Part shown: piece after piece, positions 1 to 12,227 of the stretch | How positions within the stretch are numbered: position 1 is the stretch's first letter | Layout of the letters: every line of letters starts with the position of its first letter | Assembly: GCA_017520425.1 (NCBI GenBank) | Contig: JAFXFO010000033.1 | Location: 7,257 to 71,256, forward strand | Source of the DNA: Lachnospiraceae bacterium | Lineage (GTDB): Bacteria; Bacillota; Clostridia; Lachnospirales; Lachnospiraceae | Direction of reading: 5' to 3' | DNA: 64,000 nucleotides | Made by a program: the position numbers and the translations under genes | Notes under the pieces: generated by a model | Told to the model about the DNA's origin: nothing | The model's input: the letters and a program-made list of their open reading frames with translations, nothing else | Databases searched by the model: none

Positions 1-336
1 TTCGTTATTTAAGTTTTTGGCATAAGTGAAACAATCAATAAAAGTTTTTTTTAATTTTTTCCCCGAAAAAATCTTTAATCTATTCAATATTATCAATGCT
101 CCGGGCCAATTTAAGTCTTGTAACCATTCTAAAAGACTATCCAGATATGGTTCTAAAACTGTATCAGTTTTTTCACTCAAAACTTGTGCACAACATTCCC
201 AAACAGATGGTGCCGCAGGTGGAAGAATTAACAAAGATAAATCCTCAATTTCTTTTGCTAAACTAATTCCCTCTGCTCGTGTTTCATTATTATTTTCCCA
301 ATTTAGCATTTTGTAGATATTTTGTATATCATTCAT
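1..336 (-). CDS. DUF5071-like protein, putative immunity protein of the upstream RHS toxin (3' end runs off the window)
   Basis: Not in ORF track. Manual translation from ATG at 336-334 is open to position 1 (112 codons): MNDIQNIYKMLNWENNNETRAEGISLAKEIEDLSLLILPPAAPSVWECCAQVLSEKTDTVLEPYLDSLLEWLQDLNWPGALIILNRLKIFSGKKLKKTFIDCFTYAKNLNNE. WLQDLNWPG is the motif I recall for DUF5071; the start lies 1 bp after the RHS stop. Confidence 0.8.
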   Translation of the reverse strand, partial: MNDIQNIYKMLNWENNNETRAEGISLAKEIEDLSLLILPPAAPSVWECCAQVLSEKTDTVLEPYLDSLLEWLQDLNWPGALIILNRLKIFSGKKLKKTFIDCFTYAKNLNNE

Positions 337-337
337 G

Positions 338-1732
338 TCAATTTCCTCCATTCCACTTTACTACGACTGATTTAACAGCTGTTGTCCATACTGATGAGGA
401 ACCGGCATTGTGCCAATCCTCCAAAGTTCCGCCAAGGGGATGAACACTGACATGACCTGCACCGTCGTAAACAGCATATACCACTCCAGTTGCATTCAAT
501 GCTTCTATTGTAGTCATTGCCGCACCTGGTTTCGGCACTGTGGAAAAAGAAAGCCCTTTTCTAGTGATTGGGTATAAATCGACATCACGTTGACTAGGTG
601 TTAAATTTCCTGGATTAGTGCCCCCATATCTATAAATGACGGTAGGAGATGGCGGTGGAACTGTAATATCTTTTTCTTTTGTTTCTGCTTTTGGAATAGA
701 GATAGATGGAGCTTGTGCTGCTTGATAAACTCCGTATCCTATTGCACCTACTGTTAGCAAAGTTGCTCCAGCAAGACCAACAATATCACCAAAAGGTAAA
801 GGTCCATCGCTCAAAGTGGCTCCACCACACCCAGCGTAAGCGGGAGACATAAGCTCCATAGTCTTTCCAATTTCGGTAACCGCTGTTTTTGCAAATCCCC
901 AAATTTCACTCCACAATTGTCCTGTTGGATCCACTCTGTTCACCGGATTATTCCCACAATACGCAAACATATTGTAGCCCATGATGCCCTGGCCTGTGGA
1001 TACATAGCTGTCCGCGTTGATAAACCTGCCAAGCTTCGGGTCATAGTATCTGCTGTTCAAATAGTAGAACCCGGTTTCCCGGTCGTAGTAATATCCTCTG
1101 TAACGTAAGGGATTGGCTTCTGCCATGGTTCCCGTGGCGCTTACGATATTACCGAAGGGGTCATATTCGTAGGAAGCCACAGTGGCTCCGGTACTGTCTA
1201 TCATGCGGATGACATCACCCTGAGCATTTAACAGGTAGTAGAAGATGGTACCGTTGTATTGTAAGGCGTAGGGGCGACCGTTCATGTCATAGTGGAAGTA
1301 CATGATGGTGCCTGCACTGTGAATGCCCGTATTGCCGGATACACACTCCTGTAAAGGCCTTCCATCCTCCCAGATATAGGTATGGGATACATCCCCCACA
1401 CGCTTCACGCTTCTGGTGCCATCCACATCGTAGGTATAGGTGATGGTGGTGCCGTCGGATGCCACGGCTGACATTAACTTCCCGCCGTCCGCCCAGCTGA
1501 AGCTCCAGTGACTGCCGTTATAATAAGTCAAAGGATTTCCCGAACCATCATAGGTGTAGGAGAAGCTTAAACCTGCCCCTGCCTGAGCATAGGTCATGCT
1601 TCCTATCTGTCCCGTGGTCCGGTTACTGTCTCCCGGGTAGTCCCGATAGGTATAGGTATAACTGTACACACCATTTCCTACAGTGCTTACCCTGCGTAGG
1701 TGATCATATCCGATGCTGAGGGAATGGTCCAC
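338..1732 (-). CDS. RHS repeat-associated core protein with C-terminal toxin domain, N-terminally truncated (orphan-type module)
   Basis: YD-type repeats, RHS core PLRYRGYYYDRETGFYYLNSRYYDPKLGRF and boundary NMFAYCGNNPVNRVDPTG, then a 193-aa variable tip. GTG start without SD; frame closes at 1751. Confidence 0.9.
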   Translation of the reverse strand: MDHSLSIGYDHLRRVSTVGNGVYSYTYTYRDYPGDSNRTTGQIGSMTYAQAGAGLSFSYTYDGSGNPLTYYNGSHWSFSWADGGKLMSAVASDGTTITYTYDVDGTRSVKRVGDVSHTYIWEDGRPLQECVSGNTGIHSAGTIMYFHYDMNGRPYALQYNGTIFYYLLNAQGDVIRMIDSTGATVASYEYDPFGNIVSATGTMAEANPLRYRGYYYDRETGFYYLNSRYYDPKLGRFINADSYVSTGQGIMGYNMFAYCGNNPVNRVDPTGQLWSEIWGFAKTAVTEIGKTMELMSPAYAGCGGATLSDGPLPFGDIVGLAGATLLTVGAIGYGVYQAAQAPSISIPKAETKEKDITVPPPSPTVIYRYGGTNPGNLTPSQRDVDLYPITRKGLSFSTVPKPGAAMTTIEALNATGVVYAVYDGAGHVSVHPLGGTLEDWHNAGSSSVWTTAVKSVVVKWNGGN

Positions 1733-1752
1733 TAGTAAATATTTGTAATTTT

Positions 1753-1781
1753 ATTTTATCCCCTTATATTACCGTTTGTCA
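1753..1781 (-). promoter_or_regulatory. sigma-A-type promoter pointing into the RHS fragment
   Basis: Minus strand TTGACA (1781-1776), 17 bp, TAAAAT (1758-1753). Confidence 0.7.
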
Positions 1782-1812
1782 ATATGTCTAGTTGCTTCGT
1801 CGTCTGTGTTAT

Positions 1813-1846
1813 AAAAAACCACTACAGATTTCTCCATAGTGGTTTT
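1813..1846 (-). terminator. Intrinsic terminator of pnp
   Basis: Inverted repeat AAAACCACTA/TAGTGGTTTT with U-tract on minus strand just after the pnp stop. Confidence 0.8.
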
Positions 1847-1857
1847 AACAGCACTTC

Positions 1858-3948
1858 TTATGCCTGAGCAACATCCTTCATAGAGAAGCTGATTCTGCCC
1901 ATCTTGTCCTTACCTAAGCATACAACAGTTACCTTGTCGCCTAAGGTAAGTACATCTTCTACATGGTTGATTCTTTCCTTTGCAATCTTGGAAATATGAA
2001 CCATACCTTCCTTGCCGGGTGCAAACTCAATGAATGCACCGAATTCCTTGATACTTACAACAGTACCCTTGAAAATCTGGCCTTCTTCGAACTCGGTAGT
2101 GATGATCTTAATCATTTCTACTGCCTTGTCCATCATATCCTTATCGGTACCGCATACGGATACCTTACCATCATCGGTAATGTCAATCTTAACGCCGGTA
2201 CGTGCAATAATCTCGTTAATGGTCTTACCACGCTGTCCAACCACTTCACCAATCTTCTCAGGATCAATCTGGATGGAGATAATCTTAGGAGCGTAAGGTC
2301 CAACTTCCGGACGGGGAGCTGCGATAGCTGGCTTCATACAGGTATCCATGATAAAGAGTCTTGCTTCACGACATCTTGCAATAGCACCCTCTACGATTTC
2401 TCTGGTCAAACCATGAATCTTAATATCCATCTGGATAGCAGTAATACCATCGGTAGTACCGGTTACCTTAAAGTCCATATCACCGAAGAAGTCTTCCAGA
2501 CCCTGAATATCGGTTAATAATACGAAATCGTCATCGGTTTCTCCTGTTACCAGACCACAGGAAATACCTGCAACCATCTTCTTAATAGGCACACCTGCAG
2601 CCATTAATGACATACAGGAAGAACAGGTAGATGCCATAGAGGTAGAACCGTTTGATTCAAAGGTTTCAGATACGGTACGGATTGCATAAGGGAATTCCTC
2701 TTCACTGGGAAGTACGGGAACCAATGCCTTTTCTGCCAATGCACCATGTCCGATTTCACGACGTCCGGGTCCTCTGGAAACCTTGGTTTCACCTACGGAG
2801 TAGCTGGGGAAGTTGTAGTGATGCATATATCTCTTGGATACTTCGTTCTCATCCAAACCATCCAGCTTCTGCTGCTCTGATAAAGGAGCCAGAGTAGTAA
2901 TGTTACAAATCTGAGTCTGTCCACGGGTAAACATAGCAGAACCATGTACACGAGGAATAATATCAACTTCTGCAGATAACTTACGAATCTGATCAATCTT
3001 ACGACCGTCGGGACGCTTGTGATCCTTTAAGATCATCTTACGAACGGTCTTCTTCTGATACTGATATACTGCTTCGCCAAGGATTGCCAACCACTCTTCG
3101 TTATCAGCAAATGCCTCTTCCATCTTAGCGGTTACTTCGCGGATGTTTGCCTCACGAACCTGCTTTTCATCAGTGAAAACTGCTTCTTCCATTTCTTCGG
3201 GAGTTACAATCTTCTTCATTTCTTCAAACATTTCAGCAGGAATAGCACAGCTGGTGTATTCATGTTTCGGCTTACCAACTTCAGCTACAATCTTATCAAT
3301 AAACTCGATAATCGTCTGATTTACTTCATGTGCAAGATAGATTGCTTCAATCATCTTTGCTTCAGGTACTTCGTTAGCACCTGCTTCAATCATAATAACC
3401 TTTTCCTTGGTAGATGCAACGGTTAAGTTTAAGTCACCGTTCTTCCACTGTTCCTGGCTGGGGTTGATAACAAATTCGCCATCTACCAAACCAACCTGAG
3501 TCATAGCACAAGGACCGTCAAAAGGAATATCAGAAATACTGGTTGCAATAGCGGCACCAAGCATAGCTACGATTTCGGGACGGCATGAAGGATCAACACT
3601 CATTACCATATTGTTTAAGGTTACATCATTACGATAGTCCTTAGGGAATAAAGGACGCATAGGTCTGTCGATTACACGGCTGGTAAGGATAGCATTCTCA
3701 CTTGCCTTTCCTTCTCTCTTGTTGAATCCTCCGGGAATCTTACCTACAGAATACAGCTTCTCTTCGTATTCTACGCTCAAAGGGAAAAAGTCAATTCCGT
3801 CTCTGGGCTTTTCAGATGCGGTTGCGGTAGAAAGCACGGTGGTCTCACCATACTGCATAAATGCACAACCATTTGCCTGCTTACCTACACGGTTAATATC
3901 TACGCGTAAGGTTCTGCCGGCCAGTTCCATTGTAAAAGTATTATACAT
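1858..3948 (-). CDS. pnp: Polyribonucleotide nucleotidyltransferase (PNPase)
   Basis: RRExGHG, FESNGSTSMAS and DFKVTGT motifs; C-terminal KH and S1 domains; follows rpsO. Confidence 0.99.
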   Translation of the reverse strand: MYNTFTMELAGRTLRVDINRVGKQANGCAFMQYGETTVLSTATASEKPRDGIDFFPLSVEYEEKLYSVGKIPGGFNKREGKASENAILTSRVIDRPMRPLFPKDYRNDVTLNNMVMSVDPSCRPEIVAMLGAAIATSISDIPFDGPCAMTQVGLVDGEFVINPSQEQWKNGDLNLTVASTKEKVIMIEAGANEVPEAKMIEAIYLAHEVNQTIIEFIDKIVAEVGKPKHEYTSCAIPAEMFEEMKKIVTPEEMEEAVFTDEKQVREANIREVTAKMEEAFADNEEWLAILGEAVYQYQKKTVRKMILKDHKRPDGRKIDQIRKLSAEVDIIPRVHGSAMFTRGQTQICNITTLAPLSEQQKLDGLDENEVSKRYMHHYNFPSYSVGETKVSRGPGRREIGHGALAEKALVPVLPSEEEFPYAIRTVSETFESNGSTSMASTCSSCMSLMAAGVPIKKMVAGISCGLVTGETDDDFVLLTDIQGLEDFFGDMDFKVTGTTDGITAIQMDIKIHGLTREIVEGAIARCREARLFIMDTCMKPAIAAPRPEVGPYAPKIISIQIDPEKIGEVVGQRGKTINEIIARTGVKIDITDDGKVSVCGTDKDMMDKAVEMIKIITTEFEEGQIFKGTVVSIKEFGAFIEFAPGKEGMVHISKIAKERINHVEDVLTLGDKVTVVCLGKDKMGRISFSMKDVAQA

Positions 3949-3991
3949 AGCTTCTCCATTCTGCCTTTAAAAGGCTATTTGTTTATTTCAA

Positions 3992-4075
3992 TCGAACAGG
4001 GAGCTACCGAAACTACTGAAAAAAGCACGATATTCATACACTTTTCAGCGGTCTCGGGGGCACCGCCCTATTCGA
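3992..4075 (-). promoter_or_regulatory. Long imperfect hairpin in the pnp 5' leader (candidate RNase III processing stem)
   Basis: Arms TCGAACAGGG..ACCGA..CTGAAAA (3992-4022) and TTTTCAG..TCGG..CCCTATTCGA (4042-4075). Confidence 0.5.
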
Positions 4076-4095
4076 AAGTTACCATTTTACGCACA

Positions 4096-4137
4096 GAAAG
4101 ACGGGGAAGCCAAATCTTTCGGACTTCCGCCGCCTTC
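4096..4137 (-). terminator. Hairpin downstream of rpsO (terminator-like, short U-tract)
   Basis: Minus strand GAAGGCGGCGGAAGUCC...GGCUUCCCCGUCUUUC just after the rpsO stop. Confidence 0.5.
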
Positions 4138-4147
4138 ATCATGTCAA

Positions 4148-4414
4148 TTACTTTCTGATGCCTAACTTCTCGATCAATTCACGATACTTGTTCAGGTCTT
4201 TTCTCTTTAAGTAGTCAAGAAGACCACGTCTCTGACCAACCATCATGTACATACCACGACGTGAATGATGATCCTTAGGGTTGCTCTTCAAATGCTCGGT
4301 AAGCTCAGCGATTCTTGCAGTTAATACTGCGATCTGAACTTCAGGTGAACCGGTGTCACCGGGGCATCTGCCGTACTCGTTAATAATTGCCTGTTTCTTT
4401 TCCTTTGAAATCAT
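4148..4414 (-). CDS. rpsO: 30S ribosomal protein S15
   Basis: [13 protein letters not shown] and DHHSRRG motifs, 88 aa. Confidence 0.99.
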
Positions 4415-4500
4415 TTTAGTTTCCTCCTAAATTCTTAATCTCACCTGACACCAAGACCGGGTCGGAGTGTCCCAAGCCTGAGCGTCGGCTAAACCATACT
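4415..4500 (-). ncRNA. Probable S15 autoregulatory leader RNA
   Basis: Structured 5' UTR of rpsO (CCAAG/CUUGG and GACAC/GUGUC stems, CCGACGC core) between promoter and SD; Firmicutes rpsO leaders are known S15-binding RNAs. Confidence 0.55.
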
Positions 4501-4505
4501 TGGCT

Positions 4506-4534
4506 ATTTTATCATACTTTTGTGTAATTGTAAA
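4506..4534 (-). promoter_or_regulatory. sigma-A promoter of rpsO
   Basis: TTTACA-N17-TAAAAT with extended -10 TG. Confidence 0.7.
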
Positions 4535-4551
4535 CACTTTTTTGAATTTTC

Positions 4552-5619
4552 TTAATCCTGCAGGATTCTTACATACTTCACCGGTGTACGGTAATTGTAT
4601 TTGCTAATCTTAATACCGCTCTTAGGGTTACTTGCATGGATTACCTGATTGCCTCCCAGATAAATCGCCACGTGATTGATGGTACCCGAACTATCCGCAT
4701 AGAAGATTAAATCTCCTGCCTGCAATTCATCCTTACTGATTTTGGTACCGCTGTTGGACTGGGATACGGAGTAATGAGGCAACTTCACACCAAATTTCTT
4801 ATAAACGCTAAGTACAAATCCGGAACAGTCAGCGCCCTTGGTCAGGCTGGTTCCGCCCCATACATAAGGATTGCCCACAAACTGCTTTGCATACTCGCAA
4901 AGCTCCACTCTTACGTCAGATACGCCCATACCGTACAAAAGCTCTGTCATGGTAATTGCCGTATCCAGGCTTTCTTCTACATGGGCAAATTCTGCGGAAA
5001 CATAGCCTTCTTCGCTATCCACATATACCTTATACCAGCCGTCCAGTTCTTCCACAAATTCCAGTTCTTCGCCCTTTAATATCTGTGTCATAACTGCACT
5101 GTTCACATCCGCTTCATCTCTTACACGAAGTCCGTCGGTATCGGCAATTACTACCTTATCCACCAACTCATTTGCACGAAGTCTGGCCTCGGGTCCTACC
5201 AACAAAAACTCTGTGCTTACATAGCCTTCCACTTCGCCGGATTTAATATGAGCCCAACCGCTTTCCTTGTCAATATCTAACACCTCACAACCAGCATTCT
5301 TACACATCTTTCCTACCAGCTTACCCTTTGTAGAAGCTTCTGCACGAACGTTCAGATTGCCGGATTCCTGATTGGCAATACCGATATTGGTATATCCCCA
5401 AGATGCTCCAACCGCTTCCTGCGCGATACTTAAATACTCTTCCTGCGTCAAATCCACACTAAACATGGACGCAATTCCCGCCTGCTGCAACACATAATTA
5501 CCACTATTTATTTCCGTAGCGGAAACATCCATAGGTTGCCACAACATCACTGCCGCAACGCCCATCCCCAATATGGAACATATCCCCCTTCTTCTACCTT
5601 CTTTTATCATAAAATACAC
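4552..5619 (-). CDS. Secreted SH3b-domain NlpC/P60 (C40) peptidoglycan endopeptidase
   Basis: N-terminal signal-like segment, two SH3b-like repeats (LNVRAEAS, LRVRDEAD), PYVWGG..DCSGFV and HVAIY..H catalytic motifs. Confidence 0.92.
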   Translation of the reverse strand: MYFMIKEGRRRGICSILGMGVAAVMLWQPMDVSATEINSGNYVLQQAGIASMFSVDLTQEEYLSIAQEAVGASWGYTNIGIANQESGNLNVRAEASTKGKLVGKMCKNAGCEVLDIDKESGWAHIKSGEVEGYVSTEFLLVGPEARLRANELVDKVVIADTDGLRVRDEADVNSAVMTQILKGEELEFVEELDGWYKVYVDSEEGYVSAEFAHVEESLDTAITMTELLYGMGVSDVRVELCEYAKQFVGNPYVWGGTSLTKGADCSGFVLSVYKKFGVKLPHYSVSQSNSGTKISKDELQAGDLIFYADSSGTINHVAIYLGGNQVIHASNPKSGIKISKYNYRTPVKYVRILQD

Positions 5620-5642
5620 CTCAAAATAATCATTACGATTTT

Positions 5643-5659
5643 GTTACAAAAATATTACA
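5643..5659 (-). promoter_or_regulatory. WalR-like direct repeat upstream of the NlpC/P60 gene
   Basis: Minus strand TGTAAT-ATTTT-TGTAAC fits the TGTWAH-N5-TGTWAH consensus. Confidence 0.5.
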
Positions 5660-5669
5660 CCACATTGGC

Positions 5670-5699
5670 ATTATACCAACATGGTGTAACTTATGTCAA
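5670..5699 (-). promoter_or_regulatory. sigma-A promoter of the NlpC/P60 gene, -35 overlapping the ribF stop
   Basis: TTGACA-N18-TATAAT with TG extension. Confidence 0.7.
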
Positions 5700-6625
5700 T
5701 CTATTTTCGATAAATGGTAGTATTTTCCCGCTTCAATATCAGCCGCCATTTGGGTCTTTAATGCCTCCACATCCGCAAAACGCATTTCCGGCCTTCTGTA
5801 GGTTAATAAAGCCACCCTGATTTCCTCACCGTAAATCTCCTCATCAAAATCATAAAGGTAAGTTTCCACCCCTATAATCTTCTCATCCGAGACAGTTGGT
5901 TTACTGCCAATATTGGTAATGGCGGGGTATATTTTTTCTCCCCAATAAACCTGCGAAAAATAAACTCCGTTGGGTGGTAACAGTTTCATTTCAGAGGGAA
6001 TCAGATTCAACGTAGGCATACCTAATTTTCTGCCCAGCGCCTTTCCGTGCAATACACTACCGCTAATCGCATAGGGCACTCCCAAAAGCTTCTGTGCCTG
6101 TTCCATCCTACCCAGCTCTACCTGCTTTCTAACTAAGGAAGAACTGATTTCCTCTCCATCCAGAGTCACTTTTTCAATCAGCGTAAGCCTGTATCCCAGT
6201 TTCTCCGCAAATTCTTCCAGCAACTGTGCATTTCCGGCACCTTTTGCTCCAAAGGATACATCCATCCCTGCCGCAATATATCGCACATGCAAGCCTTCCC
6301 ACAATAATTTCTCCACGAAATCCTGAGGGGTTACGGCTGCATTCTCATAGTTCATGGGATATTCCACCAGCACATCCACGCCCAGCGCCTCCAGTGCCCT
6401 ACGTTTTTCTTCCTTTGTCATCAGCTCCTTACCATCCGCCAGTCCGAAAAACACTGCCGGTGACGGATTAAAGGTAAACACACAGGCCTTCAATCCTTCT
6501 TTTTTAAGCGCCAGAATCTCTTGCAGCAATCTGAGATGCCCCAGATGCAGACCATCAAATTTGCCGATGGCTACCGCAGTCTCTCCATTCAATTGACAAT
6601 TTCTAATGTCTGTAATAATTTCCAA
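5696..6625 (-). CDS. ribF: Bifunctional riboflavin kinase / FAD synthetase
   Basis: GKFDGLHLGH, ISSSLVR, GRKLGMPTLN, NIGSKPTV motifs; follows truB. Confidence 0.97.
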   Translation of the reverse strand: MEIITDIRNCQLNGETAVAIGKFDGLHLGHLRLLQEILALKKEGLKACVFTFNPSPAVFFGLADGKELMTKEEKRRALEALGVDVLVEYPMNYENAAVTPQDFVEKLLWEGLHVRYIAAGMDVSFGAKGAGNAQLLEEFAEKLGYRLTLIEKVTLDGEEISSSLVRKQVELGRMEQAQKLLGVPYAISGSVLHGKALGRKLGMPTLNLIPSEMKLLPPNGVYFSQVYWGEKIYPAITNIGSKPTVSDEKIIGVETYLYDFDEEIYGEEIRVALLTYRRPEMRFADVEALKTQMAADIEAGKYYHLSKID

Positions 6626-6665
6626 TACTACTTCCTCGGTTTTTGAAACCTGACCTTCCTTACGT

Positions 6666-7568
6666 TTATTCCTCTGTCAAAAACATTTTCACAGGCTTAT
6701 AACGCTTCTTTTCCGTTTCATACGTATAGATTCCGTAAAATTTGTTTTTGCCGTAAACCCGCACCCATTCTCCGTCCGGGTACTTTATATTTTCCATAGT
6801 ATGACTCACCAAAATCGGATTTCCATTATCCAAAAGCTTGCAAAACTCTTCTTTTACATGCAAAGCAGGCTTTTCCTCAAATACCCGCTCCACTGCATAA
6901 AGCCTGGTCTCGATACCCACGCTGTCCCGAATCTGCTCCAGTTCTGCCAAAGTAATGGCCTCCTCTTTCCGAAAGATTCCCACCTTGGTACGCTCCAGAC
7001 TCTTCATGGTACCACCGCACCCCAGCTTCGCACCGATATCTGCGCAAAGAGTACGGATATATGTTCCTTTGGAACATGCCACACGGATTCTTACTACCGG
7101 TAGCTGCATATCCAGTATTTCCAACTCATGAATGGTCACCGGTCTGGCCTGACGTTCTACTTCCTTACCGGCCCTGGCCAGCTCGTACAGTTTCTTGCCA
7201 TTTACCTTCAAGGCAGAATACATAGGCGGAACCTGCATGTAATCTCCCAGGAAACTCATAACTGCTTCCCTAACCGCTTGCTCATCCGTTACGGGACTAC
7301 TCTCTCTAAGAATCTGACCGGTAATATCCTGGGTATCAGTTTCCACACCCAAAAGTAATTCTGTTACATATTCTTTTTCTTTATCCGTCAACAAATCACA
7401 GAGCTTGGTTGCGCTTCCCAGACAAACCGGCAACACACCGGTTGCATCCGGATCCAGGGTGCCTGTATGCCCGATTTTCTTTTGCTTACAGATGCCTCTC
7501 ATTTTCGCCACCACGTCATGAGAGGTAAAACCTTTTTCTTTGTATATATTAATAATACCGTTGTACAT
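6666..7568 (-). CDS. truB: tRNA pseudouridine(55) synthase
   Basis: KIGHTGTLDPDATGVL, PPMYSALK, CSKGTYIRTL motifs. Confidence 0.98.
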   Translation of the reverse strand: MYNGIINIYKEKGFTSHDVVAKMRGICKQKKIGHTGTLDPDATGVLPVCLGSATKLCDLLTDKEKEYVTELLLGVETDTQDITGQILRESSPVTDEQAVREAVMSFLGDYMQVPPMYSALKVNGKKLYELARAGKEVERQARPVTIHELEILDMQLPVVRIRVACSKGTYIRTLCADIGAKLGCGGTMKSLERTKVGIFRKEEAITLAELEQIRDSVGIETRLYAVERVFEEKPALHVKEEFCKLLDNGNPILVSHTMENIKYPDGEWVRVYGKNKFYGIYTYETEKKRYKPVKMFLTEE

Positions 7569-7602
7569 ACTTATCCTCTTGCTTATTTATGGGCACACCC
7601 AA

Positions 7603-8577
7603 CTAAATGGCACCGTTTTTCAACAGCTGTTCTTCAATATACTTGGACAAATTATTGACGCAATCGTGGAAGGTGCCCTGCATGGTACAGCCTGCCGCAC
7701 GCATGTGGCCGCCGCCGCCGAAATATCCTGCCACTTCAGCCACATTCACCATTTCATCAGACCGCATGCTTACCTTGAATTCCATATTGCCGATCTCATA
7801 CATGAAAATGGCACAATGGACGCCCTTTATGTTTCTCAGCTGATTTACGATGCCGTCAAAATCCTGACTGGTGGCTCCGTAAAAGTCCATGTGTTTCTTT
7901 TCCATACAGCTTACGATACAGGTTCCATCCATAAAACGGATGCTCTCCATCAAAGCACGGCCCAGCACCTGGGTCTGCAAATAGGTTCTCTGATAAAAGG
8001 TCTCTTCTATCAAACGCGGAAAATCAAAACCATAGCTAATCAGCTTGGCGCCTACTTCCATGGTTTTTTGATTGGTATTGGAATACTGGAATACACCGGT
8101 ATCATGAATGATTCCGGTATAAAGGATCTTAGCCAGTTCCTTATCCAATGCTTCCTCACCCATATCCTCCATAATCAGGTCAAATACCAGCTCACTGGCT
8201 GAACCCACATGGGGCTTTATATAATTCAACTCGCCGGTGCCCTGGTTGCTGATATGATGATCAATATTGATTCGTTTCTTTGCATTCTCAGCATACTTCT
8301 GTGCCTGGCCGGTTCGCTCCATGCCACAATCCATAACGAAGAATACATCAAACATTTCTTCTTCCGGAAAATCCGTCACAATATCCTCGAAACCGCTTAA
8401 TTCACTAAACACAGCCGCCGGTTGCTCCAAATATACTTTTATATAGGTATTCTCCGGCATATATTTCTTTAAATAGCCATATATCCCCAGACAGGAGCTG
8501 ATACAGTCTCCGTCCGGTCTGATATGTCCGCTGATTCCGATTCTGGTAGCATCCTTACATTCTTGTAAAAGCTTCAT
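7603..8577 (-). CDS. nrnA: DHH/DHHA1 oligoribonuclease / pAp phosphatase (NrnA family)
   Basis: HIRPDGD, IDHH, HDTG and GGGGHMRAAG motifs; conserved position between rbfA and truB. Confidence 0.88.
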   Translation of the reverse strand: MKLLQECKDATRIGISGHIRPDGDCISSCLGIYGYLKKYMPENTYIKVYLEQPAAVFSELSGFEDIVTDFPEEEMFDVFFVMDCGMERTGQAQKYAENAKKRINIDHHISNQGTGELNYIKPHVGSASELVFDLIMEDMGEEALDKELAKILYTGIIHDTGVFQYSNTNQKTMEVGAKLISYGFDFPRLIEETFYQRTYLQTQVLGRALMESIRFMDGTCIVSCMEKKHMDFYGATSQDFDGIVNQLRNIKGVHCAIFMYEIGNMEFKVSMRSDEMVNVAEVAGYFGGGGHMRAAGCTMQGTFHDCVNNLSKYIEEQLLKNGAI

Positions 8578-8643
8578 CTGCCATCGCCTTTCTTATACAT
8601 AAAATACACAGACAGCCCCGCACAAAGCGGGGCCCATCTATTA

Positions 8644-9021
8644 TTACTCTTCTTCCTCGTTTCCTTCCTGCGAAGACATTACATCATCAATCTTCTTTGA
8701 CATATTCACGCCATACTCTATGGACTGATCCATAATAAAGGTAATGGCAGGTGTATTACGCAGATTGATTTCCTTAGCCAGCTTAGACTTAATAAAGCCC
8801 TCTGCACTTTTCAACCCCTGATAGGTGGCATTTCTGGCTTCCTCATTGCCCAGTACGCTGATCCATGCCTTGCAGCTCTTCAAATCCGGAGCCACTTCCA
8901 CAGCCACCACACTGGTCAGAGGACTGATGCGGGGATCCTTGATTTCTCCACGGATAATCTCCGCCAGAACCCTCTGCACCTCCCCGTTAATACGGGTATT
9001 TTTAATGCTGTTTTTTCTCAT
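8644..9021 (-). CDS. rbfA: 30S ribosome-binding factor A
   Basis: IKDPRI..VEVAPDLKSCKAWIS..LRNTPAITF pattern; follows infB. Confidence 0.97.
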   Translation of the reverse strand: MRKNSIKNTRINGEVQRVLAEIIRGEIKDPRISPLTSVVAVEVAPDLKSCKAWISVLGNEEARNATYQGLKSAEGFIKSKLAKEINLRNTPAITFIMDQSIEYGVNMSKKIDDVMSSQEGNEEEE

Positions 9022-9226
9022 AAAAATCCTTTCTTCAGGAATCGCTTACGCTTGTCATGCAGAAGCGCCATAAAACATTCCACTTAGGCACGCTCTCGCT
9101 CCGTGGAACGCGTAGCGGTTCTAAATTCGAAAACACCTCATTAAGAACCGACGTGTTCCAAGGGCCTTGCGTTGGAACATTTTACGGTGCTTCTGCTTTC
9201 CAAGCTTACGCTTCCTTCAAAAATCC
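9022..9226 (-). repeat. Highly structured REP/MITE-like intergenic element flanked by 8-bp direct repeats
   Basis: Outer stem 9059-9082/9173-9196, inner stem 9104-9122/9143-9160, several GNRA-type loops on the minus strand; AAAAATCC at 9022-9029 and 9219-9226. Confidence 0.7.
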
Positions 9227-9251
9227 ATCCAACATTCCCTCGAAAATATCA

Positions 9252-12227
9252 TTATCTGGGAACTTCTACCATGATATATGCTTCTACAATATCCAGTTCC
9301 TGCATCTGGTCGAAGCCGTCGAATACAAGACCACATTCGAAACCGGTCTTAACTTCCTTCACATCATCCTTAAATCTCTTAAGGGATGCCAGTTCACCTT
9401 CGTAAATCTGATTGCCTTCACGGGTGATACGAATCTTACAGCCTCTCTGGAAGATACCATCTAATACGTAAGAACCTGCAATATTACCCACTGCGGATGC
9501 CTTGAAGATCTGGCGAACCTCTGCATGACCGATAATCTTCTCCTCGTAAACAGGATCCAACATACCCTTCATAGCTGCCTGAATATCTTCGATTGCCTGG
9601 TAAATAACCTTGTATAATCTTACATCCACGCCTTCACGCTCTGCAGTAGCCTTTGCGGTAGCATCGGTACGTACGTTGAAACCGATGATAATTGCATTGG
9701 ATGCACCTGCCAAAGTAACGTCGGATTCGTTAATGGCACCAACACCGCCATGGATGCATTTTACCACTACTTCTTCGTTAGACAGCTTCATCAAAGACTG
9801 CTTCACTGCTTCCACACTACCCTGTACGTCTGCCTTTACGATTAAGTTCAATTCCTTCAGATTGCCTTCCTTAATCTGGGAGAACAAATCATCAAGAGAC
9901 ATTCTGGACTTGGTTTCCTCCAGCATCTTCTCCTTGTTCTGTGCCAGATAGGTTTCTGCATAGGTCTTAGCCTGCTTGTCGGTAGCATGGGAAAGGAAAA
10001 CCTCACCTGCTGCAGGTACATCGGAAAGACCTAAAATCTCTACCGGTGTGGAAGGCGTTGCTTCCTTCACTCTTCTGCCCTTATCGTCAATCATAGCTCT
10101 TACCTTACCATAGCAAGCACCTGCGGAAATAAAGTCACCTACATGCAAAGTACCCTTCTGTACCAATACGGTAGCCACAGGACCGCGTCCCTTATCCAAC
10201 TCAGCTTCGATTACAAGACCTCTTGCCTGACGGTTAGGATTTGCCTTTAACTCCAGCACATCTGCGGTCAGAAGAATCATTTCCAAAAGGTCCTGAATAC
10301 CTTCGCCTGTTTTTGCGGAAACAGGTGCAAAAATAGTACTTCCGCCCCAATCCTCTGAAATTAATTCATATTCGGTCAGCTCCTGCTTAACACGTTCAAT
10401 GTTTGCAGAAGGCTTATCAATCTTATTTACGGCTACGATGATTTCAATACCTGCCGCCTTAGCATGGTTAATTGCTTCCACGGTCTGGGGCATTACACCA
10501 TCATCTGCTGCAACTACCAAGATAGCAATATCCGTAGCGGTTGCACCACGCATACGCATCGCGGTAAACGCTTCATGTCCGGGTGTATCCAGGAAAGTAA
10601 TCTTTCTGCCGTTCGCATTAACGGTATACGCACCGATATGCTGGGTAATACCACCTGCTTCCTTGTCGGTTACATTGGTCTTACGGATGGCATCCAAAAG
10701 GGAAGTCTTTCCATGGTCAACGTGTCCCATTACACAGATAACGGGAGGTCTTTCCATCAAATCTTCCTCTGCCTCTTCCTCTTCCTTCAAGAGTTCCTCA
10801 ATTACGTCAATCTTTTCTTCCTTTTCACAAAGAATATCGTATTCCATCGCAATATTCTCTGCATCTTCATAAGAAATTTCCTGATTTACGGTTACAATCT
10901 TTCCTTCCATAAACAGTTTCTTCACAATTACGGAAGGCTGCAACTTCATCTTATCAGCCAAGTCCTTGATGGTGATGGTCTCAGGCAATACGATTACCTT
11001 GATTACCTCTTCTACCACTTCTTCTTTCTTCTTTTCCGGCTTGATGAAGCGTCCCGGTTTGTTCTTCAGTGCTTCCTCTTCCTCATAGAAGTGATCCTTC
11101 TTGTTTCTCTTATCCTTTTCCTGACTGATACGTCTCTTTTCTTCTTCTCTATGCTTTTCGGTATCCTTTATAGGGGCTGCATCACCGCCGAAATTATTCT
11201 TGCTGCGATTGTCCCTACTAAACTTATCTCCCTGACGTCCGTCATTTCTGCCGCCACGGCTGTCTCTGTCCTTGCCGCCGAAATCCTTGCCGCCAAAGTC
11301 TTTTCCTCCAAAGTCCTTGCCGCCGAAATCTTTACCGCCATTGTTTCTGCGGTCGCCCTGGTTAAAGCCGGGTCTGCCCTGCATACCGCCTTCCGGTCTA
11401 TTGTAACCACCCTGACGATTGCCCTGACCGCGATTGTCACGGTTTTCTCTGTTATCACGGTTAAACTGACCGTTTCTGTCCTGGCCCTGACGATTGTCGG
11501 GACGATTTCCTCGATCATTATTTCTCTCAAAACCACCCTGACGCTGATTATTTCTGTCTCCCTGGGGTCTGTTATTGGTATTCTGAGGTCTTTCCTGTCT
11601 GTTTTCTCTAACAGGTGCTGCCACTTCCGACTTCACTGTTACTTCCGGTGTTTGTACCTGAACCTCTACCTTTTCAGCCACCACATCCTTCTTAGGCTGA
11701 GACTGAGGCTGTGACTTCACCATCTGCACACTGGGTGTGGGAGAAGGAGGAGTCAGGGGTTTAATAGCAGGACGTGATACAGGTGCCTGTGAAGGTCTGT
11801 TACCTGCATTATTATATCCGCCGGGTCTGTTTTGATTCTGAACCGGTCTGTTCTGGCTCTGCCCCTGTACCGGTGCCTTGGACCTTTGTCCGCCGGGAAT
11901 CTTTGAATTTTGCGGATTGCTTACAAAGATAATGGTTTTCTTTTTCTTCTTTGGTGCTTCCTCATTTGCTACCGGCTTCTTTTCTTCAGAGGTAGCCTCG
12001 GTTGCCTCCTTCACCACTTCTTTGGTTTCCGCTTCTGTCACTTTTTTATCTGCCAAATGCGTTTCTCCTTTTTTACCGAATGCTTTACGCACGCTTTCAA
12101 TCGCATCCTCCTCTACGGAGCTTTGCGCCGCCTTTGCTTCAATACCCTTTTCCTGTAAAAAAGCAAGGACTTCTTTACTTGTTATATCAAGCTCTTTTGC
12201 TAACTCATGTACTTTCATTTTTGCCAT
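9252..12227 (-). CDS. infB: Translation initiation factor IF-2
   Basis: [24 protein letters not shown] GTPase motifs; long low-complexity N-terminus; [13 protein letters not shown]-terminus. Confidence 0.99.
11267..11340 (-). repeat. 15-bp coding tandem repeat (GGKDF x4 + GGKDR) in IF-2 N-terminal region
   Basis: Protein [27 protein letters not shown]; DNA units vary at synonymous sites. Confidence 0.9.

Follow-up and report, generated by a model that had tools for sequence, protein, structure and literature searches.

Gene content and organization of the locus

The stretch of DNA analyzed here, called the window throughout (64,000 nt, positions 1 to 64,000, equivalent to positions 7257 to 71256 of contig C30), carries near its start a short series of elements that all read on the minus strand. 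In the direction of transcription, pnp (3948-1858) is followed by an inverted repeat with a T-run, a promoter-like site, an RHS-type open reading frame (ORF), and a DUF5071-like ORF that continues past the start of the window. The RHS ORF starts 125 nt after the end of pnp. Judging by its sequence, the inverted repeat with its T-run likely separates pnp from the toxin module as a terminator; a terminator scan left it unlisted because its loop is longer than the limit of the scan. The promoter-like site is the best consensus match of the region. The features are listed below.

1813..1846, minus strand: inverted repeat and T-run following pnp, likely the pnp terminator (direct reading)
1753..1782, minus strand: promoter-like site just upstream of the RHS ORF, TTGACA-18 nt-TAAAAT (11 of 12 positions, consensus match only)
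1732-341, minus strand: RHS-type ORF, 464 codons, 464 aa (direct reading)
1166..1732, minus strand: truncated YD/RHS repeat region, residues 1-189 (PF05593, 26.5 bits)
917..1165, minus strand: RHS repeat-associated core, residues 190-272, with terminal motif PVNRVDPTGQLW (TIGR03696, 81.8 bits, cut-off 32.5)
647..916, minus strand: pre-toxin region after the RHS cleavage motif, residues 273-362 (no Pfam family)
341..646, minus strand: C-terminal candidate toxin domain, residues 363-464, ~100 aa (79-sequence alignment A2, AF2 model)
345..349, minus strand: GGAGG ribosome-binding site, 8 nt before the ATG at 336, inside the end of the RHS frame (direct reading)
340-338, minus strand: TGA stop of the RHS ORF, 1 nt (337) ahead of the ATG of the next gene (direct reading)
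1..336 plus 132 nt past the window start, to C30:7125, minus strand: DUF5071-like gene, very probably an immunity gene, 155 aa (PF16804, contig reading)

The RHS ORF opens with a GTG codon in the middle of a repeat, has no ribosome-binding site, and is preceded by an in-frame stop six codons upstream. A complete RHS shell spans about 1500 to 2200 aa and includes an N-terminal region, as compared with the 464 aa and mid-repeat start seen here, and in alignment the ORF corresponds to the part from residue 387 onward of a called RHS product of 828 aa in another locus (L009), which is itself incomplete. An earlier note on this DNA had described the gene as an RHS toxin. RHS repeats, core and tip are indeed there, the YD repeats and core that characterize RHS polymorphic toxins being recognized by PF05593, by TIGR03696 and by PVNRVDPTGQLW, a DPxGL-type motif that closes the RHS core as read from the translation. 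However, the gene is a 5′-truncated orphan C-terminal piece and not a full RHS gene or a deliverable toxin. Since it is truncated and lacks a ribosome-binding site, the window copy may never make toxin.

The last ~190 residues of the RHS ORF gave zero matches in Pfam or NCBIfam. Their first part, the pre-toxin region (about 85 to 90 aa), combines helices, including a hydrophobic membrane-like one, with a Pro/Lys-rich linker; it is conserved across many related loci and also precedes a different tip. As the earlier note had remarked, the tip and the ORF that follows it are more AT-rich than the RHS core, with GC contents of 44.8% for the toxin domain, 43.7% for the linker and 30.6% for the DUF5071-like ORF versus 50.9% for the core (genome, 42.7%). 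The same note had placed the start of this second ORF at 336, 1 bp after the RHS stop, and had read WLQDLNWPG in it before it ran off the window. Both readings held, as the stop (340-338) is separated by base 337 from an ATG at 336, and translation yields WLQDLNWPG at about window positions 100-126 (residues 76-84 of a 160-aa form). Extending the contig brought the ORF to its end 132 nt beyond the window. The 160-aa form would arise from an alternative ATG at 351, which overlaps the GGAGG; because of this overlap, and because homologs are mostly 155 aa long, the ATG at 336 is the likely start.

Past the window start, the contig carries another orphan RHS end, whose tip is a different one and which has its own small ORF, and further along an IS110-family transposase, after which comes an Ntox17 tip that lacks a start, again with a small ORF. 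A broken IS110-like gene and another small pair lie in the same stretch, and the contig ends in an RHS fragment that is 95% identical to that of the window. The assembly (42 contigs, about 90% complete) contains five RHS core ends and breaks inside RHS repeats; no full-length RHS shell was found in these 42 contigs, and PF25023 had zero matches in the genome. The locus is an orphan rhs-CT/immunity array.

The RHS tip and its DUF5071-like neighbor

Conservation within the tip was assessed on an alignment of 79 toxin domains (A2). Residues P17, G31-L-S-F34, T45-T46, N51, T53, A58, H65, P70, W78 and G82 proved invariant, while Y5-R6, N11-P12, N14, D21, S35-T36 and D61, among others, are nearly so; in the numbering of the RHS ORF, the conserved residues include R368, S395-F-S397, D423 and H427. 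None of the 79 members (0/79) matched any Pfam family, the domain has no NCBIfam match, and a search of PDB sequences with the A2 profile found nothing. AF2 modeled the domain alone from the A2 alignment with a pLDDT of 97.1 and a pTM of 0.89, which supersedes a single-sequence model of the whole tip (pLDDT 41).

With the domain model as query, Foldseek returned no PDB or Swiss-Prot analog, including after re-alignment of its own matches, and among AlphaFold clusters it returned RHS and uncharacterized proteins only. The exhaustive aligner VIA-align placed Tse2 of Pseudomonas aeruginosa (5AKO_D) at the top, over 86 of 102 residues and with a Z of 5.8 that falls under the aligner's own safe level. 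Tse2 was followed by 9LD3 (likely Tpt1-type), tRNA 2′-phosphotransferases, DarT, AvrPphF, TreX, CARDS and scabin, and the diphtheria and pertussis toxins, NarE, TccC3 and TreTu were further matches; about 20 of the 50 matches listed are ADP-ribosyltransferase (ART) folds. A shape search in the ESM Atlas led to the PF18648 (Tse2) cluster (TM 0.65/0.59), and a language-model feature search led to Tse2-family clusters (0.95), then to scabin-like, NarE and pertussis-like ones. In the model, strand 1 ends in Y-R, with a nearly invariant Arg, and strand 2 carries S-F-S, of which the first Ser is invariant and the second nearly so, as in R-S-E transferases. At the start of strand 5, an invariant His stands in place of the R-S-E Glu and is preceded four residues earlier by a nearly invariant Asp; the domain shows no evident counterpart of the Glu that is classically the third catalytic residue of ADP-ribosyltransferases.

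Placement of the domain in PF18648 by sequence was tried and rejected. The PF18648 model matched 0/79 toxin members at E-values up to 10 and had zero matches in the genome, and neither hhalign (with one and with three Tse2-family sequences) nor pairwise alignment with shuffles against PF18648 proteins was significant; the homolog search for the Tse2 family had given 3 proteins only, too few for a good profile. As every test of kinship at the sequence level failed, the domain was not filed as a Tse2-family member. On the strength of the structural models, an ART/Tse2-like fold for the tip is likely, and the domain probably works like a Tse2-type ART toxin; for an active NAD-dependent transferase, we regard the chances as about even.

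The protein encoded downstream scored 33.1 to 35.1 bits against PF16804 (DUF5071), above the gathering cut-off of 27, so that the family assignment made in the earlier note was borne out by the profile. The alignment covers positions 13-55 of 119 only, less than most of the profile, whereas a canonical DUF5071 member aligns over positions 1-114 with 114 bits, and the window protein therefore belongs to a divergent DUF5071 subfamily. All 443 of its close homologs carry PF16804, representative clusters at 50% identity number 591, and the 34 diverse subfamily members that we aligned (A1) match the family without exception (34/34, best E 1.3e-11). The family is rare; among 401 genomes sampled from the phylum, 6 matched PF16804.

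The founding and only solved DUF5071 structure is that of Cthe_2751 from Clostridium thermocellum (PDB 3UT4/3UT7/3UT8). Its authors presented the protein as a singleton without a function, tentatively suggested a part in nucleic-acid processing on the basis of a very weak match, and proposed no toxin link (PMC3282739). Cthe_2751 belongs to the same Pfam family and shares the LL-W-LQD-x-NWP motif of the window subfamily (E 9e-5 with the family profile), but only about 30 residues align and the two proteins differ in length (130 versus 155 aa). The likeness of the window protein to all-alpha Cthe_2751 is thus a motif-level sequence match to 3UT7/3UT4; its chain reached a pLDDT of 92 in the complex model described below. 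In the open-access literature on DUF5071, PF16804, PF18648, Cthe_2751 and Tse2-like proteins, we found no statement of DUF5071 as an immunity family.

A link of canonical DUF5071 genes to toxins was considered and found unsupported in the few cases available, none of which has a toxin nearby; the canonical gene mentioned above (114 bits), from a 6.9-Mb genome of the same phylum, adjoins DUF3221 and ABC-transporter genes. Since the canonical members examined have no adjacent toxin, the proposed immunity function is assigned to the RHS-linked subfamily and not to all DUF5071 proteins.

Recurrence and predicted binding of the pair

To survey the genomic neighborhood of the subfamily, alignment A1 was used to fetch 80 loci, each from a different species and picked by the DUF5071-like gene alone, so that counts are at species level. 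The loci come mostly from gut Clostridia, with a few Bacteroidota and one Coriobacteriaceae bacterium. An intact homologous toxin domain ends no more than 60 nt upstream of the DUF5071-like gene in 25/80 loci, and recognizable remnants of the domain lie upstream in another 18/80. In 34/80 loci, about 40% of the genes surveyed, the DUF5071-like gene is an orphan with no toxin alongside, and in 3/80 the contig end is too close for assessment. The upstream gene in ten toxin-less loci is a housekeeping gene or has no Pfam match. Pairing of DUF5071-like genes with several different toxins was likewise considered and dropped, as 0/10 of these upstream genes match a toxin family.

Searching from the toxin is a less biased direction than the DUF5071-first survey. 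Such toxin-first searches found a DUF5071-like gene next to the toxin in 6/6 further loci. Run alone against 399 genomes of the class, the toxin profile recovered three further genomes, all with a DUF5071-like gene directly downstream, although one of the three pairs is disrupted by stops in both toxin and immunity genes; in three metagenomic toxin homologs on long contigs, the DUF5071-like gene comes next after a 1-nt gap or with an overlap. In line with the earlier note, homologs are strongly and specifically associated with one toxin tip. The gene in the window has the arrangement expected of an immunity gene, lying on the same strand and directly downstream after a 1-nt gap, and recurring with the tip across genomes.

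Full-length carriers of the tip are also found. One genome encodes a complete 2232-aa RHS protein with the same tip, then a 133-aa DUF5071 protein, then an orphan module, and at five loci (L029, L030, L055, L069 and L042) the tip-bearing RHS frame reaches the end of the retrieved sequence without a stop, giving 1546 to about 2000 aa. Across 32 pairs, identity to the window sequences ranges from 44 to 90% for the toxin domain and from 37 to 83% for the immunity protein, while the RHS cores differ. The identity matrices of toxin and immunity proteins are correlated (Mantel r 0.60, with 0/2000 permutations as high), a correlation that is confounded by linked inheritance.

We also modeled the toxin domain together with the DUF5071-like protein. 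The predicted complex, which the earlier note had suggested as a check, gave an ipSAE of 0.77 (runs 0.74-0.81), while the best control gave 0.00. In calibration, this mark was reached by 58/80 solved complexes and 2/110 mismatched pairs, counts that apply only approximately to our models, which were built on our own unpaired alignments. In the modeled interface, residues 5-9, 33-35 and 61-65 of the toxin domain meet residues 77-83 of the immunity protein. On the immunity side, it involves VWExCA, QDxNWPG and C-terminal Trp residues, the most conserved motifs of the family, and on the toxin side the nearly invariant Arg, the S-F-S, the Asp and the His of a conserved cleft. The model supports binding of the DUF5071-like protein to the toxin domain, and the predicted interface has the pattern of a cognate immunity protein that would block an active site.

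A candidate toxin-immunity pair and its relation to known systems

We propose that positions 1-1732 of the window represent an orphan polymorphic-toxin module, made up of an rhs C-terminal fragment and its cognate immunity gene. The fragment retains the final ~270 residues of the shell with the core/cleavage motif, followed by the pre-toxin segment and the toxin domain, the latter representing a putative un-named family with a minimal ADP-ribosyltransferase-type fold that appears nearest to the type VI effector Tse2. Relatives of full length (about 2000 to 2230 aa) would carry the domain as a warhead inside the RHS shell and deliver it to rival bacteria, where we infer that it would be toxic, probably in the cytoplasm and through NAD-dependent chemistry. 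The 155-aa DUF5071-type protein would neutralize this toxin by binding it, and we infer that it would do so in cells, with W-L-Q-D-x-N-W-P-G, V-W-E-x-C-A and the C-terminal Trp residues predicted to sit over the Arg/Ser/Asp/His cleft of the toxin. Because the RHS piece cannot build a shell in this genome, we read the module as a spare tip available to recombination and chiefly as an immunity gene that would be expressed, perhaps from the promoter-like site, against the same toxin of neighbors. Identification of the DUF5071-like ORF as the cognate immunity gene of the RHS tip is, in our judgment, highly probable. The earlier claim that the DUF5071-like protein neutralizes the toxin and so gives its family a function is supported in silico by the PF16804 match, the linkage and the complex model, but for the subfamily only, the canonical DUF5071 genes examined not being toxin-adjacent.

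An accessory factor of the toxin, be it a chaperone, a stabilizer or an export adaptor, might be encoded at the same position. An obligate helper would fit the tight coupling and the co-occurrence equally well, and a predicted complex speaks to binding rather than to inhibition. However, DUF5071-like copies that stand without toxin beside housekeeping genes (34/80) and the tandem multi-domain copies that also exist are typical of immunity genes and would be pointless in a helper. Moreover, the predicted interface would cover the conserved cleft of the toxin, and in the toxin-first metagenome loci and the locus of the 2232-aa RHS protein, the stretch from the toxin to the following module shows no other recurring small gene that might provide immunity. 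We thus regard a helper role as very unlikely. The pair could instead be a dead relic of rearrangement in an IS-ridden array, untranscribed and useless, with a gene order that reflects history. The 5′-truncated RHS gene with its GTG start and missing ribosome site would agree with this, as would the assembly devoid of a full-length RHS shell, the IS110-family genes and broken pieces downstream, and the relative in which both genes are disrupted by stops. Yet toxin domain and immunity ORF are both intact and retain all family-invariant residues, a good ribosome site precedes the immunity gene, and a promoter-like site matching at 11/12 positions lies just upstream of the module; moreover, with an assembly that is ~90% complete and breaks inside RHS repeats, a full-length gene may have gone unassembled. 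A functionless relic seems rather improbable to us on balance.

Another reading would keep the tip as a toxin but not as an ADP-ribosyltransferase, its likeness to Tse2 and ART folds reflecting a common small alpha/beta arrangement and its activity being a different one, for example that of a nuclease or NADase. The Tse2 match has a Z of only 5.8, Foldseek was empty, there is no sequence-level link, and the catalytic Glu is not apparent; to our knowledge, neither a substrate of Tse2 itself nor a target of this toxin type has been demonstrated. On the other hand, three different methods (VIA-align, ESM Atlas and language-model features) converge on the ART superfamily, the Arg at the end of strand 1 and the S-x-S on strand 2 match R-S-E-type ART positions, and ART folds make up ~20 of the 50 structural matches listed, which leaves a non-ART toxin somewhat unlikely. 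Going beyond the proposed immunity function, one may speculate that the DUF5071-like proteins form the dedicated immunity family of an un-named toxin family widespread in gut Clostridia and some Bacteroidota, that the toxin is a stripped-down Tse2 relative which ADP-ribosylates nucleic acid and not protein, like Tpt1/KptA and DarT, its next-best structural neighbors, and that the many stand-alone copies in gut commensals are acquired defences against this one toxin. We give this fuller scenario a low likelihood; if true, it would make the pair a practicable means of finding the target of Tse2-type toxins.

If the module is indeed a toxin-immunity pair, a subfamily of a domain of unknown function gains a testable role, that of antidote against a single defined toxin domain. 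This toxin domain, which Pfam and NCBIfam do not cover, is now defined; many gut Clostridia and some Bacteroidota bear it on their RHS proteins. The occurrence of stand-alone antidote genes in many gut species suggests that gut communities select for resistance to this toxin. Furthermore, the predicted Tse2-like fold would add a Gram-positive, RHS-borne branch to the Tse2 toxin type. As an architecture, an orphan array in which an RHS tip is followed by an immunity gene is textbook material; the pairing of these toxin and immunity families is new.

Orphan rhs-CT/immunity arrays with C-terminal displacement were reportedly described in Enterobacteria by Jackson et al. in 2009. The window array resembles them in its serial 5′-truncated rhs ends, each with its own tip and a small downstream gene, and in the IS elements between them. 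In contrast to the enterobacterial arrays, it occurs in Gram-positive-type gut Clostridia, lies directly after pnp, and has no full-length rhs assembled upstream. Two characterized systems, TreX-TriX of Xenorhabdus bovienii (PDB 8S2M) and TreTu of Salmonella Rhs1 (PDB 7ZHL), also combine an RHS shell, an ART-fold tip and an immunity gene immediately downstream. As VIA-align matches, however, TreX and TreTu reached a Z of only 3.5 and 2.3, respectively, a structural likeness to the window toxin far weaker than that of Tse2, and they represent different toxin families.

The closest system structurally is Tse2-Tsi2 of P. aeruginosa (PDB 5AKO, PF18648 ADPRTs_Tse2), in which Tse2 is a small interbacterial toxin that acts in the cytoplasm and has a minimal ART-type fold. 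Tse2 is a stand-alone type VI substrate of Gram-negative bacteria, whereas the window domain occurs as an RHS tip, mainly in gut Clostridia, and sequence similarity between the two is undetectable. Tsi2 is a small protein, and at one surveyed locus (L109) a Tse2-family gene is followed by a 74-aa ORF; the window immunity protein, with 155 aa and a DUF5071 score, is contrasted with Tsi2 by size and family only. Tsi2 is helical and has been described as occluding the active site of Tse2 (PMC6099711), an arrangement that the predicted complex of the window toxin and its DUF5071-type partner would resemble.

Pre-toxin segment and promoter-like site of the RHS ORF

Two features accompany the 5'-truncated RHS ORF, the orphan gene that precedes the DUF5071-like putative immunity gene:

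Window 647-916, minus strand: segment that links the RHS cleavage motif to the toxin domain (RHS ORF residues 273-362)
Window 1753-1782, minus strand: near-consensus promoter-like site, TTGACA-18-TAAAAT

The pre-toxin segment, which includes the hydrophobic helix GDIVGLAGATLLTVGAIGYGVY, is kept across many loci and also stands ahead of a different tip in two loci (L030 9050-10138 and L018 4967-5473); it may represent a shared entry or translocation module. The promoter-like site lies after the terminator-like hairpin of pnp and ahead of the truncated RHS ORF, so independent transcription may occur from it, covering the orphan module or, at minimum, its immunity gene.

Other toxin-like modules and RHS pieces in the assembly

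Further modules were found outside the window in L001, the fetched locus that reaches past the window start (contig C30, positions 1-9300):

L001 6265-7047, minus strand: second orphan RHS end, 260 aa
L001 5761-6246, minus strand: AT-rich ORF following it, 161 aa, 29% GC
L001 3668-4999, minus strand: IS110-family transposase gene, 443 aa
L001 3232-3486, open frame to 3564: Ntox17 toxin tip lacking a start (PF15524, 101 bits)
L001 1662-2839, plus strand: second IS110-like gene, broken

The tip of the second orphan RHS end belongs to no Pfam family and differs from that of the window RHS ORF; together with the 161-aa ORF, it is a candidate for another nameless toxin-immunity pair. The Ntox17 tip and then a 105-aa ORF directly follow the IS110-family transposase gene (L001 2903-4999).

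RHS core ends and repeats were also observed at several contig ends of the assembly:

C30:1-525
C16:188238-188465
C36:42631-42726
C36:8-457

No full-length RHS shell is assembled in this genome. Breaks in the assembly probably fall within rhs repeats, and a main rhs gene may therefore be absent from the assembled data.

DUF5071-like architectures and the canonical gene

Two or three tandem copies of the DUF5071-like domain occur within single proteins among the representative relatives (P0122, P0128, P0153, P0166, and P0200) and at L042 4644-6384 and L069 5882-6643; P0140, P0241, and P0260 carry the domain behind unrelated N-terminal regions. In a Paludibacteraceae contig, two double-domain proteins come after an RHS gene bearing the same tip as the window RHS ORF (at least 1546 aa, frame open to the locus edge).

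One canonical full-length member was located in genome G377:

L097 6562-6948, minus strand: canonical DUF5071 gene, 114 bits

No toxin was found near this gene at locus L097, where its neighbors are DUF3221, VanZ, and ABC/FecCD transporter genes. In L098, which comes from a congeneric genome, the canonical gene is broken into two parts.
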